Sequence record: MZ311861.1
DNA length: 39,091 bases
DNA from: Escherichia phage vB_EcoP_LNA5
Strand: one strand, 5' to 3'
Both the position numbers and the translations under genes were made by a program. Positions within the stretch are counted from its first letter, which is position 1; the number at the start of each line of letters is the position of its first letter. Shown here piece after piece: positions 14,770-20,138 of this stretch. The notes beneath the pieces are model-generated. The model saw nothing but the letters and a program-made list of their open reading frames with translations, was not told the origin of the DNA and searched no databases.

Positions 14770-14789
14770 ACTTAAAGTCCTTGTTATTA

Positions 14790-14830
14790 GTCTTTCACTT
14801 AAAGTCTCTTTGGTCTTTCACTTGGAGTCT
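14790..14830 (-). repeat. two 18-bp direct repeats in the RNAP 5' leader
   Basis: gtctttcacttaaagtct (14790..14807) and gtctttcacttggagtct (14813..14830), 16/18 identical, between the upstream phage promoter and the RNAP start. Confidence 0.6.
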
Positions 14831-14842
14831 TAGACCTTTAGT

Positions 14843-14860
14843 CCTATAGTGATAGTTAAG
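14843..14860 (-). promoter_or_regulatory. phage RNAP promoter immediately upstream of the RNAP gene
   Basis: cctatagtgatagttaag; about 75 bp upstream of the gene 1 ATG. Confidence 0.8.
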
Positions 14861-14866
14861 TCAGAA

Positions 14867-15193
14867 TCACTTGCATATCAGTGGGTTAGCGTGAAGATGA
14901 CTGAAGTCACCATGAGTCGTGTGCTTGATGGTTGACCGTTGGTCTATCGCCTTCCAGCCTGAGACTAAAAGTTTACCATCGTCAGTGATTGGTCGTCCAC
15001 CATACACCAGACACATCAGCTCGGACTTATGTCCCTCAGCCCGGAGTCTTGCTTGCAGTACCCGGTCCCGCTCCTGCTGTTGACGTGCGGAGTGACTTGA
15101 CGTTCCGTGACGATACCCGGTAGCCAGTAGGCTTAACATTTGCATGTCTGCGTCCATAGAGTGTACCAGATTAATCCCGTATGACTTGTTCAT
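14867..15193 (-). CDS. hypothetical early protein (108 aa)
   Basis: ATG overlaps the upstream ORF stop (TAATG); GGGAG upstream; no motif recognised; occupies the position where T7 has gene 0.7, but is not kinase-like. Confidence 0.55.
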   Translation of the reverse strand: MNKSYGINLVHSMDADMQMLSLLATGYRHGTSSHSARQQQERDRVLQARLRAEGHKSELMCLVYGGRPITDDGKLLVSGWKAIDQRSTIKHTTHGDFSHLHANPLICK

Positions 15194-15396
15194 TACAGTT
15201 TGCTCCCAAGTGTTGCTATATCCCAGACGTTCGCTAAGTTACGCATGAATCGTCCGTTAGGTTGACGTACAGTCCAGCTACCCAGACGTACATATTTGAA
15301 TTTGTAGACTTTACGCGCTTTGTTGATGTCTCTCACCAGCACGTAGGCGATAAGTCCATAGCCTATGGCTATCAATAGTGTGATACTCATAGTCAT
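15193..15396 (-). CDS. small membrane protein (67 aa), start uncertain
   Basis: Track ORF begins at GTG 15567 without a ribosome-binding site; an internal ATG at 15396 overlaps the stop of an upstream micro-ORF (ATGA) and yields MTMSITLLIAIGYGLIAYVLV.. with one predicted TM helix. Confidence 0.35.
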   Translation of the reverse strand: MTMSITLLIAIGYGLIAYVLVRDINKARKVYKFKYVRLGSWTVRQPNGRFMRNLANVWDIATLGSKL

Positions 15397-15497
15397 AAGC
15401 CCCATAACAGTTGAGTAAGGACCGGTAGTTTGCAGACTAGAGTAAACATTCCCCACGCTACGAAGCCTGAGATAGTCCAGATGATTGCAGTGCTCAT
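15393..15497 (-). CDS. possible 34-aa hydrophobic micropeptide
   Basis: AGGAG 7-8 nt upstream of ATG; MSTAIIWTISGFVAWGMFTLVCKLPVLTQLLWGL; translationally coupled to the downstream ORF. Confidence 0.3.
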   Translation of the reverse strand: MSTAIIWTISGFVAWGMFTLVCKLPVLTQLLWGL

Positions 15498-15629
15498 AGT
15501 TAACTCCTATCAATGTAAGTGGTAATCTTTGAGGCCACCTATCAGTCGATGACCTCTCGTCTATCACTCAGTACCATCACGTCAGTGTTATGGTCAAGCT
15601 ATGATTTGGTTCTCTCCTGTTTATTTAGG

Positions 15630-15857
15630 TTACTCGCCGTCTCCTTCTGTAAGGCTATCGTCTATTAATTCAAATTTACCGTTTGAGTGTTGGATAGCCT
15701 CTTGTCCGCAATGGTCGCAAACCACCAGTTTATCGAACCCGTCAAACTCGTCACCTGCTACGCAAGAAAGTACGAATTTATGATTGGTGCATACTTCTTG
15801 CGTTTCACCGAAAATTGCTCGAAAACCTTTGGTTATGGCACCAGTGATTGTGTTCAT
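15630..15857 (-). CDS. Cys-rich small protein (75 aa), possible zinc ribbon
   Basis: GAGGG upstream of ATG; paired Cys motifs (C..C, then CDHC) and an acidic C-terminus; sits downstream of an RNase III-like hairpin. Confidence 0.55.
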   Translation of the reverse strand: MNTITGAITKGFRAIFGETQEVCTNHKFVLSCVAGDEFDGFDKLVVCDHCGQEAIQHSNGKFELIDDSLTEGDGE

Positions 15858-15871
15858 ATCTTCCCTCTCAG

Positions 15872-15928
15872 TTGTTAATGACTATCAGTCAGGCCACCAG
15901 CATTGATGACCTGTAGTCTGTCACTTAG
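15872..15928 (-). promoter_or_regulatory. RNase III-like processing hairpin, class B
   Basis: Shares the gttaGtgactatcagtcaggcc...cctgtagt motif with 16602..16660 and 16919..16983; forms a long imperfect hairpin, as recalled for T7 R1. Confidence 0.5.
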
Positions 15929-16070
15929 CGTGTAAACTGTCGTGTATACGCTTGCGTCTCCTGTAGACCACTTTCAAGAGACGCATAGCCCAATCGTGGT
16001 CTAACTGCCCGGTCTTGACCATAAGCCGGGCGTTAGTGACGTGGTGCTGGCAGAGGCCATAAGTTACCAT
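15921..16070 (-). CDS. gp0.4-like small protein (49 aa)
   Basis: ATG overlaps the Ocr stop (TGATG), as 0.4 does with 0.3 in T7; MVTYGLCQHHVTNARLMVKTGQLDHDWAMRLLKVVYRRRKRIHDSLHAK shares the YGL..W..AM..L pattern with recalled T7 gp0.4. Confidence 0.45.
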   Translation of the reverse strand: MVTYGLCQHHVTNARLMVKTGQLDHDWAMRLLKVVYRRRKRIHDSLHAK

Positions 16071-16573
16071 CACTCGCAGTCCTCAGCCGCAGGGTCGAAC
16101 ACTACGTTATCATTGATGTCTTCCACCTTCAGGTGGCGACCTGCCGCATAGTTAACATTGGCACATGCAGTAGCGACCTCAAGAGCTACAGCTTGCACAA
16201 TTATTGCGCCTGTTTTAGCGTCAACTACCCAATATTCATCCTCTTCGTCTGCCTCTTCATCCTCAAACCAGACTACATCCAAGCTATTAGACACGTCGTT
16301 ATAAAGTGCCTCATAGATGCGAGCTTGTAGGATACGCGTTACGTCCTTGGTTTCAGGTATCATCCCAGAGTCTTCGAACTCGTTGTCTATACCATCAGCA
16401 GCCATCACCGTAAAAATCTCGTGGTAATAGTGTGGAACCTGACCGTCTACGACCTCATGCAGCGCAGCGCTGTAGTCGTCATCTTGAGTCAGGTGGTCGT
16501 ACTGAATACGCTCGATAAATGCCTCAACGGTTGCAGCCAGCAACTCATAGTATGCGTTAGCATTACGTTCCAT
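16070..16573 (-). CDS. ocr: Ocr-like DNA-mimic anti-restriction protein (gene 0.3) with about 50-aa C-terminal extension
   Basis: Residues 1-115 match recalled T7 Ocr (..VPHYY..IF.VMA..GID.EFEDSG..P.TKDV.RILQARIYE..); the ORF then continues past the acidic tail (..DEEADEEDEY) for about 50 more residues; GAGG upstream of ATG. Confidence 0.85.
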   Translation of the reverse strand: MERNANAYYELLAATVEAFIERIQYDHLTQDDDYSAALHEVVDGQVPHYYHEIFTVMAADGIDNEFEDSGMIPETKDVTRILQARIYEALYNDVSNSLDVVWFEDEEADEEDEYWVVDAKTGAIIVQAVALEVATACANVNYAAGRHLKVEDINDNVVFDPAAEDCE

Positions 16574-16601
16574 AGTTATATCCTCTCAAAGTTAATTATG
16601 T

Positions 16602-16660
16602 GTTAGTGACTATCAGTCAGGCCGCTATCAGTCTAACGACCTGTAGTTAATCACTCTCAG
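16602..16660 (-). promoter_or_regulatory. RNase III-like processing hairpin, class B
   Basis: gttagtgactatcagtcaggcc..cctgtagttaatcac: 7-bp outer stem plus CAGG/CCUG inner stem with internal loop; lies between the first early ORF and ocr. Confidence 0.5.
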
Positions 16661-16902
16661 TTAGTGAAATAAGGAGCTGAGACGCCCACTGTAGGACTCA
16701 CGGTTATCTGCGAGTCTATCAGGTATGTCTCGTTGTCTATACGCACAGTATCGACGCTGTAGTTGCTGAACTGCTTGCTTGATACCTTGCGCACTACCAC
16801 ACGGTGACGCGCTCCTGTCATCTCTTTAAGCTGAATCCACGCATAACCTTTAGTGTTCACGAATACTTCATTGCGATTAGTGATTGTGCTTAAGTGTTTC
16901 AT
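16657..16902 (-). CDS. first early gene: hypothetical protein (81 aa)
   Basis: ATG at 16902 with AAGGA 9 nt upstream (track ATG at 16911 has no spacing); first ORF downstream of the host-type promoter and RNase III-like hairpin; no motif recognised. Confidence 0.5.
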   Translation of the reverse strand: MKHLSTITNRNEVFVNTKGYAWIQLKEMTGARHRVVVRKVSSKQFSNYSVDTVRIDNETYLIDSQITVSPTVGVSAPYFTN

Positions 16903-16918
16903 AGTGTCCATCCTTTAA

Positions 16919-16983
16919 GTTAGTGACTATCAGTCAGGGCCTTTGAGTCTACATCTGAAGGCCCTGTAGTTAGTCGCTATCGG
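16919..16983 (-). promoter_or_regulatory. RNase III-like processing hairpin, class B (R0.3 position)
   Basis: agtgactatcagtcagggcc-(18-nt loop)-ggccctgtagttagtcgct, a long imperfect inverted repeat. Confidence 0.5.
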
Positions 16984-17088
16984 CGCACATTAAGAGTTTA
17001 TCCAGATTGTTAAAGAGCATTCCCTTCAGTCAGAGGACTTCAGGTAGACCATTCAGTGTTGGTCATCACCGTTGTTTCGATGTGGTAC

Positions 17089-17118
17089 ATATTACTTTAA
17101 GTCGTTACTGCCTGTCAA
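17089..17118 (-). promoter_or_regulatory. host sigma70-type early promoter
   Basis: Minus strand TTGACA-GGCAGTAACGACTTAAAG-TAATAT (18-bp spacer); resembles the recalled T7 A3 promoter; first gene follows about 190 bp downstream. Confidence 0.6.
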
Positions 17119-17370
17119 CTACTTTCTGTCGGTTGCCTGTTGTTCGTATGTCTTACAGGCTGACTACTTAACCGGACCGGACCGGCGTCTTCACTATCCG
17201 GTTGTTGCCGTGTCGTGTTGACGGAAGCTATTAGGCCATAGTCTGGACCTATAGTCAATAGGTAATTTGAAATAATATTGATTAAGCTATCGTCGGCCCC
17301 ATGGTGTAAGAGGATATAGTCTTTGACTAACATGTCTTAGACCTTAAGTCTATAGCCTTGTGTCTATTAA

Positions 17371-17491
17371 CTGTAGGTCTATGACTGTAGGTGTTGGTGT
17401 CTTATGGTTGAGACTGTAGGTTAGTGAGACTGTAGGTTATGACTTATGGTTGTGAGAGGTAGGCTGTGACCTATGGTTGTGACTTATGGTT
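17371..17491. repeat. array of short direct repeats in the genome-terminal region
   Basis: Plus-strand (g)actgtaggt four times and (ga)cttatggtt four times; on the phage strand ACCTACAGT / AACCATAAG, resembling the recalled T7 CCTAAAG repeats near the terminal repetition. Confidence 0.6.
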
Positions 17492-17718
17492 ATACAGATA
17501 GAGACTCAAAGAAGACCCATAGTCCCAACCTATCGTCCTTCCCTAAGCCATAGCCTCAGCCTATCGTTGACCTTAAGTCTTGACCATCTGTCCAACCTTA
17601 TGATAGACTGGCACGGGTAGGGCCTTTGGTCTGGACTGAAAGAGGGCCTATGGGGAGACTTGAGGTTCTTGAAGTGTGAGATGTGGTCTCAAACTTTTGG
17701 TCCAAAACTCATCGTCAC

Positions 17719-17760
17719 TACTGTAGGCCACAGCCACTGTAGGTCAAGGACCGTAGGTCA
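17719..17760. repeat. second cluster of CTGTAGG-type short repeats
   Basis: actgtaggcc, actgtaggtc, ccgtaggtca within 42 bp. Confidence 0.5.
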
Positions 17761-17918
17761 GGCGACACTAGGATAGACCAATAAGTAGGATGACCCTAAG
17801 TGAGCTTCTATTAAGGTGTTACCTAAAGTCCTTGACTACAGTAGCTAAGGTCAGTAGAGTAGCGTCAGCTATGAACTGACCTTAGGTCTTGCTTTCGTTG
17901 ATTGTTACCATTACGGCG

Positions 17919-18077
17919 TTAATTACACTGAGAGACCAGAGAACATACGAGAGTCTCGACCCACCCGACCCACTGACTTCCAGCAGTAGCGCCAGCAGCA
18001 AGTAGAACAGCAGCAAGAAACCTGTATGTAGCTCGATTGGTCGCCAGAGCTTTAAGTACAGCTTTGGTCTTTGCCAT
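17919..18077 (-). CDS. gp19.5-like small protein (52 aa)
   Basis: AGGAGG about 10 nt upstream of ATG; downstream of the phi-OR-position promoter, as gene 19.5 is in T7; hydrophobic segment FLAAVLLAAGATAG. Confidence 0.4.
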   Translation of the reverse strand: MAKTKAVLKALATNRATYRFLAAVLLAAGATAGSQWVGWVETLVCSLVSQCN

Positions 18078-18260
18078 ATGCTACATACCTCCTGTATCTA
18101 TGGTCGGTGACTATCTGTATTGGAGGGATTATGATTAATATCACCCTCCTTCCATCGGTGCAAGCCTTAGGTAAGAACTCGAAGTCTTCCTCCTAAGGTC
18201 TTGCATAAAGTCTGCATATGTATATTCACTACAGTAATACTATAAGTAACCGGGGGTCTT

Positions 18261-18279
18261 CCCTATAGTGATAGTTAAG
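18261..18279 (-). promoter_or_regulatory. phage RNAP promoter (phi-OR position)
   Basis: ccctatagtgatagttaag, about 95 bp past the large terminase stop. Confidence 0.8.
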
Positions 18280-18374: not shown

Positions 18375-20138
18375 CTAGTGGAACGTAACGTATGACCCTA
18401 GTCCCAGCTCGTCGTCCGTATCGTGAGTTACCCGGACCCCATTGTCCCAGAACTCAGTGTGGATGGACTCGAAGCCTTTCCGTGGGTTCTCCATCTGTTC
18501 CTCCAGCCACTCCTCAGTGACTTCACGTTCGCCTTTGTTGGCATCCTTAGCCATAGACTCAACGAAGAACTGTACACCGATAGCCAGCGCATCAAGTCGG
18601 TCATCGTGTGCCAAGGCTCCACGTTCGCGAGATATACGTGTCATCTGGTAGAAGAGAGAGTAGATAGGGTTACGAACACCATCCTTATCAGAGGCCGACT
18701 GGTAGTCTTGGACGATAGCAGCAGCGTTAACGATAAGTCGGTGAGACCCCATGATAGGCTCCAGAACGTCACAGATGCGGAGTTCCTTCTGACCCTTACT
18801 CTTCACTTCAGTTACAGCAGCAGGATGGATACGGGCCGCTACAGGCTTGAATAGCTCAAGGTACATACCATCGCCGAAGTTACCCTCAATGACGTATTCG
18901 TTGACCTTCCACTTACGACCAATCTTAGCCAGTGCTTCCATCGTTGAGTCCTCATACCCACCGCGCATACCACCAGCTTCCATCACGAAGATGTAGCCGT
19001 TGAGCTGGTACAGAACAGCGTAGCCAGTCTCATCCTTACCACGACCACTAGGGTCAATGACCAGAATCTTCTGAGTGTACGCGCTGAAGGCAGAGCCTAC
19101 AGTCTGATACGTATGGTAGGAATCACCCATGAGTCCAACGTTAGGAACGTCCTCACGCTTGTTCTGAGGGTTCGGCAACCATTGGTAGACCATTGGGCTT
19201 GACTCTGGGTCCAAGTCGGCTACGATAAGGTCACGGAGCTTAAGAGGGTACTTCTCGGCATCACTCAGGTTCGGGTTAAGCATGAACTGTAGAGCGAAGC
19301 CAGCTTTACCGTAGGACAGCTCACGTTCCTTCAGGTCCGTATCATCGAAGCGTACTTCATCAGTCGGACGCCAGTAGAAGGACTCAGGGTCCTCTTCCAG
19401 CTCTGCCTGAAGCATAGGAGCCAGACGGTCGCCGTAAGACTGCCAGTCCTTCCTGTCGCGTGGATAACGAGCGGGCCAGATAGTAGTGGTGTACCCACGA
19501 CCTTCCAGCTCACGGTACAGGGTCATCTCGTTCTGAGGAGTGCCCAGATAGATGATTGTACCTCCCGGCTTCAGGATAGCGTCGAACTCTTTTACAAGCT
19601 CTGACAGACGGTCTCTCGCAGCCTGAGTAGCAGAGTTGTTTGGAACCTCCACGTCATCGGCAATCAGGATGTCAGCACGACTACCAGTCAACTGACCAGT
19701 GATACCAACGGACTTAACCGAAGGTGAGTGGTCTGGCTTGGCTGGACCAACGTCGAAGCTGATAACCGCATCTCGCTGTCCCTGCTTAGGTTTGAGTTCC
19801 TGAAGCTGAGGCATGAGGTCGATGATTCGCTTGATGAATATGGAGTTAGCATCGGCTCGTTCCTTTGAGGCCGACACAATCATGAACTTCAAGTCTGGGT
19901 TGTTCCATAGTTTCCAGACCACGAAACCACAGGTCAGAAACGACTTGCCAATACCACGGAACGCCTGAAGGATGAAGCGGCGATTATCCCCAGCAGCCAG
20001 CTTCTTACACATATCTATCTGGCAGCGGGTTGGAACCGGAAGGCTAAGAGCTTTCCAGAGAACGAAGATGAAGAACACGAAGTCTTCCTTCATACGTGCA
20101 GTCATTAGCGCCTGACGCGCCACTAAGTCTTTACTCAA
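18375..20138 (-). CDS. terminase large subunit gp19
   Basis: Recalled collinear similarity to T7 gp19 (..[39 protein letters not shown].., ..[26 protein letters not shown].., ..[31 protein letters not shown]..). Start codon is TTG (AGGAGGT 6 nt upstream), overlapping the 18.5 stop. Confidence 0.97.

Follow-up and report, generated by a model that had tools for sequence, protein, structure and literature searches.

What fills the early region of a T7-like phage that has no gp0.7 kinase, and does anything stand in for the kinase there? The genome of Escherichia phage vB_EcoP_LNA5 (MZ311861.1) raises this question at positions 14867-16902, where a run of small genes lies ahead of the RNA polymerase gene. 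We analysed the whole 39,091-nucleotide stretch, hereafter the window. A first-pass annotation, made from the letters alone, had read the region as host-transcribed and as carrying several orphan genes in place of a T7-like 0.7 kinase. Our analysis indicates that 14867-16902 is very probably an LM33_P1-type Kayfunavirus operon of class I (early) genes, for which we propose inferred processing and gene roles. The region is an ordinary early operon of a well-sampled genus, and the earlier reading overstates how unusual it is.

A probable early operon ahead of gene 1

The window spans a whole T7-like genome in circular permutation, and its genes lie on the minus strand. Over 2,631 bases (14770-17400) it shares 99.0% DNA identity with Escherichia phage LM33_P1 (Kayfunavirus; NC_031937), whose gene order is the same across the whole block, and 244 phage records match this interval. 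Near 17680 is a T7-type left end (TCTCACAC...). The terminase gene, 19, has its end at 18375, and the block of small genes is closed at its other side by gene 1 (Table 1); 14867-16902 therefore runs between the early promoters and gene 1. The N-terminal 300 residues of the gene 1 polymerase are 97-99% identical across most Kayfunavirus loci.

Seven open reading frames (ORFs), referred to here as A81, Ocr, C49, D75, E34, F67 and G108, were confirmed on the minus strand, in agreement with the first-pass annotation. Genes were scored in 41 Ocr-bearing viral contigs together with reference genomes, giving a presence/absence matrix of 46 loci; the Kayfunavirus set comprises 14 loci. G108 lies directly before gene 1 in all 14 of these, a C49 homologue is present in all 14 and an F67 homologue in 13. 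This comparison shows a genus backbone of Ocr, a gp0.4 homologue (C49), a small membrane peptide, a T3-type gp0.6 (F67) and G108. A81 (5/14), D75 and E34 are accessory genes that vary between genomes. When slot contents were compared in 13 Kayfunavirus loci, the slot before Ocr held A81, a 58-amino-acid ORF, a 52-amino-acid ORF or nothing, and that between C49 and F67 held D75, a 41-amino-acid ORF, a 115-amino-acid ORF or others. Just upstream of F67, 12 of the 13 loci have a small hydrophobic peptide (E34 or one of 29, 45 or 55 amino acids); in the locus without an F67 homologue (L017), an E34 homologue sits just upstream of G108. The result is a map in which Ocr, gp0.4, gp0.6 and G108 are fixed and A81, D75 and E34 are exchangeable, and in which two insertion hot spots, before Ocr and between 0.4 and 0.6, offer natural payload sites. 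Phage K1F (NC_007456) follows the same plan: it shares A81, Ocr with its C-terminal extension, C49, F67 and G108, likewise lacks gp0.7, and has a 55-amino-acid two-helix membrane peptide where the window has D75 and E34.

Table 1. Features of the early region of the window, from the early promoter to gene 1 (aa, amino acids; pI, isoelectric point; RBS, ribosome-binding site; nt, nucleotides)
Feature	Positions	Strand	Remarks
Sigma-70-type early promoter, TTGACA-18 nt-TAATAT	17089-17118	minus	score 10/12; upstream of all early ORFs
RNase III-type hairpin preceding A81	16921-16979	minus	-22.8 kcal/mol, z -3.65
A81, 81-aa basic protein (pI 9.7), phrog_10124	16657-16902	minus	accessory first early gene; AAGGA 8 nt upstream
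RNase III-type hairpin preceding Ocr	16601-16659	minus	-23.8 kcal/mol, z -4.51; belongs to repeat family D2
Ocr (gp0.3), DNA mimic, 167 aa	16070-16573	minus	Pfam PF08684, 5e-28
C49, 49 aa, divergent T7 gp0.4 homologue	15921-16070	minus	ATG at 16070 overlaps Ocr TGA
RNase III-type hairpin, 5' edge of D75 cassette	15877-15925	minus	-19.0 kcal/mol, z -2.70
Captured cassette: RBS, D75 ORF (15630-15857), vestigial RBS	15604-15877	minus	Kagunavirus match
RNase III-type hairpin preceding E34	15516-15570	minus	part of a -25.9 kcal/mol fold, z -3.05
E34, hydrophobic membrane peptide of 34 aa	15393-15497	minus	RBS TAGGAG 7 nt upstream
F67, T3/K11 gp0.6 family, 67 aa; single-pass membrane protein with basic tail	15193-15396	minus	ATG overlaps E34 stop (ATGA)
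G108, 108 aa, phrog_7066, 'gp0.38'	14867-15193	minus	ATG overlaps F67 stop (TAATG)
Phage RNA polymerase promoter core AACTATCACTATAGG	14843-14857	minus	immediately upstream of gene 1
Gene 1, T7-type RNA polymerase, 893 aa	12088-14769	minus	closes the small-gene block

The description of the region as host-transcribed is upheld by its promoters. A sigma-70-type site precedes all early ORFs, with an equivalent in 10 of 14 Kayfunavirus sequences, the window and 13 loci; as a positive control, the same scan recovered the annotated T7 A2/A3 and T3 A1-A3 promoters. The phage promoter core AACTATCACTATAGG occurs 11 times in the window, always on the minus strand, against 0.9 copies expected by chance, and none of these copies lies at 14858-18261 or anywhere from the genome left end to 14857. 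The small genes would therefore depend on the host polymerase. The promoter before gene 1 is kept in all Kayfunavirus loci and is altered in L010, where the polymerase N-terminus is only 78% identical; in Citrobacter phage CR8 a predicted promoter is annotated at this position. Placed here, the promoter implies that gene 1 may positively regulate its own expression, a circuit absent from this site in T7 and T3. In those phages the E. coli C promoter precedes gene 1, followed in T3 by an annotated R1 site, whereas the window has the phage promoter.

In all four hairpins an asymmetric internal loop separates the lower stem from an upper stem of about 9-10 bp (about 9 bp in that preceding A81), with z-scores of -2.7 to -4.5; their dot-bracket pattern is also that of the annotated T3 R0.3/R0.5 sites and of the T7 R0.3 region. 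A 30-nucleotide repeat (family D2) recurs in three of the four; the D75 hairpin is its reference copy, and the 3' arm of the A81 hairpin belongs to it. The E34 hairpin is conserved in the CR44b-like locus L017, which has no D75 and also lacks the D75 hairpin. A further RNase III site between G108 and gene 1 was rejected, as the 97-nucleotide spacer folds no better than shuffled sequence (z -0.15). By analogy with T7 and T3, host RNA polymerase would make one long transcript that RNase III would cut into A81, Ocr-C49, D75 and E34-F67-G108 units. Shared with the class I region of T7 and T3 are a sigma-70 promoter of the host type, Ocr, a homologue of gp0.4 whose start overlaps the end of 0.3, coupling of a small membrane peptide to the gene that follows it, a T3-type gp0.6, hairpins of RNase III type that separate the gene blocks, and a downstream gene 1; the extra cassettes A81 and D75 set the region apart.

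Every one of the seven ORFs is preceded by a Shine-Dalgarno sequence or has a start codon overlapping the stop of its upstream neighbour (Ocr/C49 GTGATG, E34/F67 ATGA, F67/G108 TAATG). Ratios of non-synonymous to synonymous divergence (dN/dS), obtained by Nei-Gojobori comparison with relatives, were 0.03-0.5 for G108, 0.28-0.38 for A81, 0.12-0.68 for C49 and 0.17-0.9 for F67 against close relatives. D75 gave 0.05 against its siphovirus copy (20.5 synonymous and 5.5 non-synonymous differences), and E34 keeps its 34 codons in five of five genomes from two genera at 0.08-0.25, with synonymous sites near saturation. These values show purifying selection on all seven ORFs, as estimated from their codons. 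It might be argued that such short frames are chance openings or annotation artefacts, since public records annotate only some of them: that of LM33_P1 omits C49 and E34, and that of K1F omits A81 and G108, though homologues of both are present. However, start signals and selection are found throughout and every ORF has homologues at 40-70% identity in other genera, so that this explanation is refuted for all seven and is almost certainly wrong. By the same measures, a 72-amino-acid 'gp0.1' ORF hand-added in the LM33_P1 annotation (17115-17333, minus) is probably non-coding, given a dN/dS of 0.4-1.5 and its overlap with the promoter region, where it ends on the -35 box of the strong early promoter.

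The E34-F67-G108 module and the missing kinase

The window has no T7-like 0.7 kinase, as had been noted: tblastn of T7 and T3 gp0.7 against all 39,091 bases gave a best E of 1.2. gp0.7 was also absent from all 14 Kayfunavirus loci examined, K1F included, and the absence of gene 0.7 was published for Kayfunavirus CR44b in 2014 (PMC4038870). It is a known trait of the genus and not peculiar to this genome. In itself, then, the region matters little, being a standard, already sequenced early region whose lack of a kinase is on record.

That the early genes stand 'in place of' the kinase is not borne out, both because gp0.7 is absent genus-wide and because E34, F67 and G108 have homologues beside a kinase in CR8 (Caroctavirus). 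There, genes 0.705, 0.71 and 0.38 form the same module in the same order: gp0.7 is followed by homologues of E34 (47% identity), F67 (80%) and G108 (45%), the predicted phage promoter and gene 1. Unlike the window, CR8 keeps a T7-type gp0.4 and a 242-amino-acid gp0.7 that aligns only to residues 55-222 of T7 gp0.7, the kinase part; its G108 homologue ends in HSGRNELR, that of the window in ANPLICK. The trio is therefore a conserved module able to coexist with the kinase. Split forms of gp0.7 were seen twice: the CR8 gene (L053, 1875-2603) retains only the kinase domain, and contig L040 (1769-1984) has only a 71-amino-acid C-terminal remnant, directly before gene 1. Comparison of profiles with hhalign rejected G108 as a diverged gp0.7 fragment (probability 0.1% against a 13-member gp0.7 alignment) and as a relative of T3 gp0.65 (1.5%).

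E34 occurs in 33 phage records and scores 1.82 over a 19-residue Kyte-Doolittle window, a value within the transmembrane range. F67 is no orphan: it belongs to the T3/K11 gp0.6 family (phrog_2385, 1.9e-32; T3 gp0.6 falls in the same PHROG at 9e-30), is 91% identical to K1F gp0.6 and 40% identical to T3 gp0.6 (blastp E 1e-8), and is found in 571 phage records. Its residues 3-21 score 2.22 on the same scale and window, again in the transmembrane range, and its pI is 10.8. A Ninjurin hint from Pfam was rejected, as it came from an over-long 124-amino-acid frame. E34 and F67 would insert into the inner membrane, and the ATGA and TAATG overlaps would lead to their production in a fixed ratio with G108.

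Nor does the term orphan suit G108, given its fixed place before gene 1 and its presence in 221 phage records, although the family is narrow, with 144 clusters among 5.8 billion proteins and 13 representatives among 1.84 billion in a profile search. In divergent metagenomic relatives (about 50% identity), the order F67-like, G108-like, RNA polymerase is kept. The conserved core spans residues ~24-108; the N-terminus is variable, giving forms of 83-139 amino acids. G108 has no Pfam, PDB or solved-fold match, and a search of a viral structure library returned only its own family, including 'Gp0.38' of EcoDS1.

We modelled G108 with AlphaFold. A first run on a shallow alignment reached a predicted local distance difference test (pLDDT) score of 63; with divergent members added, the core came to about 88 and the tail stayed unmodelled. 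The model has helices at residues 33-52, 56-63 and 71-88, with pLDDT of 71-90 per ten-residue block. From about residue 89 the tail falls to 50-55, yet it is the most conserved part of the protein, with the motif TTxGDFSHLHANPLICK, which is kept in a 70-amino-acid member (P0178) whose remaining sequence is unrelated. A structured core followed by a highly conserved flexible tail suggests that the C-terminus of G108 may be a docking peptide. G108 would thus be a soluble three-helix protein whose flexible C-terminal peptide docks onto a host or phage protein.

Accessory cassettes and candidate functions

D75 has a pI of 4.5 and contains four Cys and three His. C23-x2-H26, C32 and C47-x2-C50 are invariant in all six family members, which points to a putative zinc-ribbon-like protein; no Pfam, NCBIfam, PADLOC or PDB sequence match was found. 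Its distribution is sparse (six protein clusters in the 5.8-billion-protein database) and split: the 56 phage records are LM33_P1-type Kayfunaviruses and 43-45-kb siphoviruses, at 92-93% amino-acid identity, and the carriers include the BASEL isolates Bas70 and Bas73, classified as Kagunavirus.

The cassette matches Kagunavirus (Guernseyvirinae) Bas70 over 275 bp at 87% DNA identity, from the RBS exactly to the start codon of the next gene, and the encoded Bas70_0048 is 93% identical to D75 at the amino-acid level. Because the match ends at that start codon, the window keeps a useless AGGAGA after D75 (15604-15629, minus), with no ORF behind it; in Kagunavirus this RBS serves the next gene. 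In the CR44b-like genome without D75, C49 runs almost directly into the E34 hairpin. This arrangement, together with the vestigial donor RBS, makes transfer from siphovirus to podovirus the most likely direction as read from the alignments, with the insert most likely gaining a phage-type RNase III hairpin in front. The contexts differ: in Kagunavirus the gene comes first behind a divergent transcriptional regulator, within the replication/recombination module, whereas in the window D75 is flanked by the RNase III-type hairpins of a T7-type early operon. D75 would be an acidic CxxH...CxxC zinc-ribbon-like binder of a host factor, accessory and strain-specific. One of the six clusters is a fusion with Ocr: P0126, on a 1,867-bp contig bearing the label E. 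coli, is a 129-amino-acid chimera of Ocr residues ~1-105 and the last 24 residues of D75, which derives from an LM33_P1-like phage either by deletion or through faulty assembly.

A81 starts at its second ATG (16902); the upstream ATG at 16911 has no usable RBS spacing. The gene has 41 clusters in the same 5.8-billion-protein database and 118 phage records, which include Klebsiella T7-likes, the left-end early region of N4-like Gamaleyavirus (35-47% identity; SP5M, L054 2885-3118) and a 151-kb phage (MN850571, 70715-70957). Homologues in the last two indicate that the gene moves between unrelated phage families. It has no informative Pfam or PDB match; a DUF7864 hint (E 0.08) appeared in only 2 of 26 family members and was rejected as chance. 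A81 would be a small basic protein, accessory and strain-specific. The earlier statement that A81, D75, E34 and G108 have no recognisable family or fold agrees with our Pfam, NCBIfam, PADLOC, PDB and fold searches.

Could G108, alone or with E34 and F67, nevertheless be a functional substitute for gp0.7, through host transcription shut-off or re-tuning of RNase E/III? G108 is strongly conserved and fills the gp0.7 slot in every Kayfunavirus locus, while most non-Kayfunavirus loci, from Ocr-bearing phages, have gp0.7 directly before gene 1. The shut-off function of T7 gp0.7 is assigned to its C-terminal third, and CR8, the one genome with both genes, has a gp0.7 without that third. Yet G108 shares neither sequence nor profile similarity with gp0.7 (hhalign probability 0.1%), the mutual exclusion is confounded by phylogeny and comes from one genus, the CR8 argument is that of a single genome, and no structural analogue points to a target. 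We regard this substitution as unlikely. An account in which some of the ORFs, E34 and the 3' half of G108 above all, are conserved for overlapping nucleic-acid signals (promoter, leader, gene 1 processing sites) and not as proteins draws on the stretch between G108 codon ~69 and the start of gene 1 (14770-14990), whose DNA is 94-98% identical in 12 of 14 Kayfunavirus loci (82% in L008, 72% in L010); this low divergence suggests a recombination boundary or an extra nucleic-acid constraint. Pooled synonymous divergence in the last 40 codons of G108 is likewise 0.17, against 0.43 upstream. However, pN/pS in those codons is still 0.15, the C-terminal motif survives in P0178 and in members only 40-52% identical overall, and E34 keeps its codon number and its low dN/dS over saturated synonymous sites. 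Conservation for nucleic-acid signals in place of protein is thus very unlikely to be the explanation.

The small genes without an assignment might instead be mainly anti-defence proteins acting against host immune systems. D75 and A81 favour this: both are sporadic, occupy early-gene hot spots beside Ocr and pass from one unrelated phage lineage to another, D75 between Kayfunavirus and Kagunavirus, A81 among T7-likes, Gamaleyavirus and the 151-kb phage; D75 is also small, acidic and under strong purifying selection. Sporadic, mobile, small acidic genes near early hot spots are typical of known anti-defence genes. Against it, Ocr apart, no anti-defence homologue was returned by Pfam, NCBIfam, PADLOC or PDB, and PHROGs gave families of unknown function only, none of these libraries being dedicated to anti-defence proteins. 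BASEL Kagunavirus isolates are described as highly sensitive to restriction-modification systems (PMC11990801), and at least two of these sensitive isolates, Bas70 and Bas73, carry D75; a general anti-restriction role for D75 is therefore unlikely. That G108, F67 and C49 belong to the backbone agrees better with a role in host takeover than with counter-defence tied to particular strains. As an account of the small genes as a whole, anti-defence is thus rather unlikely; from their distribution it is plausible only for the mobile cassettes D75 and A81, the best candidates, which as small mobile genes under strong selection are reasonable first picks for host-specific functions.

Our preferred reading thus remains that of an ordinary Kayfunavirus early operon with predicted processing and gene roles. 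Several observations weigh against parts of it. One strong sigma-70 site was detected, against three in T7, and both RNase III cutting and single-promoter transcription are proposed by analogy with T7 and T3. The G108 model reaches no more than moderate confidence (mean pLDDT 68.7), searches with its fold gave no informative match, and its low-confidence tail could hide a metal site or a fold missed by the model. Part of the 3' conservation of G108, where synonymous divergence is 2.5-fold lower, may act at the DNA or RNA level, and the sole basis for calling D75 a zinc ribbon is the spacing of its invariant Cys and His. A bolder scheme would make E34-F67-G108 a host-takeover device, in which the membrane peptides position G108 and its C-terminal peptide plugs a host enzyme, replacing the gp0.7 shut-off domain, and D75 a zinc-ribbon anti-defence protein moving between siphoviruses and podoviruses of encapsulated E. 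coli; taken whole, we consider it improbable and offer it as speculation. For practical purposes, the genes mapped here provide handles for engineering K1F/LM33_P1-type therapeutic phages.

C49, Ocr and minor observations

C49 is, by several profile comparisons, a divergent homologue of T7 gp0.4. Identity between the two is only 37%, but both are about 50 amino acids long and lie directly after 0.3, with full-length profile similarity. T7 0.4 starts on the last base of 0.3, just as the start of C49 overlaps the Ocr stop. Full-length PHROG matches are reciprocal (C49 to phrog_7202, 4.5e-4; T7 gp0.4 to phrog_5058, 9e-5), and hhalign of two small alignments gave a probability of 86% (E 4.8e-6, 43 columns). 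C49 is also 61% and 40% identical to metagenomic proteins with precomputed hits to PF26807 (Phage_T7_GP04); the local Pfam copy lacked this family, and T7 gp0.4 itself gave no match there. The protein is basic (pI 10.6) and His-rich.

T7 gp0.4 inhibits FtsZ (Kiro et al. 2013, as cited in PMC9372555). Dhanoa et al. 2022 (PMC9372555) reported that K1F, like T7, gives filamentous multi-ring cells with FtsZ blocked, that K1F has no 0.4 homologue and that the responsible peptide was unidentified. A 49-amino-acid ORF of K1F (L004, 1623-1772) is 82% identical to C49 and is likely, on grounds of homology, the FtsZ blocker reported as missing. By analogy with T7 gp0.4, C49 would block FtsZ ring assembly, and C49 and the K1F ORF together give a named candidate for the K1F activity.

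Ocr was assigned with confidence from PF08684 (residues 8-94, 98 bits against a cut-off of 25) and a match to PDB 1s7z (1.2e-23, residues 11-113), and is 79% identical to K1F gp0.3. It would block type I restriction and BREX by DNA mimicry. A 54-amino-acid C-terminal extension (residues 114-167; 16070-16231, minus) lies outside the family model; it is present in 6 of 14 Kayfunavirus loci, and T7 Ocr lacks it. The extension contains a hydrophobic stretch at residues 122-140 (Kyte-Doolittle 1.65).

Two further observations concern the flanks of the region. In the LM33_P1 RefSeq record (L001, 2925-5606) the RNA polymerase is split into two coding sequences labelled 'N4-like RNA polymerase', and its counterpart in the window is one intact 893-amino-acid T7-type gene. 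At 17380-17500 (minus), after the terminal repeat, a short direct repeat array of ACCATAAGTCACA and CCTACAGTCTCA types resembles the left-end array of T7.

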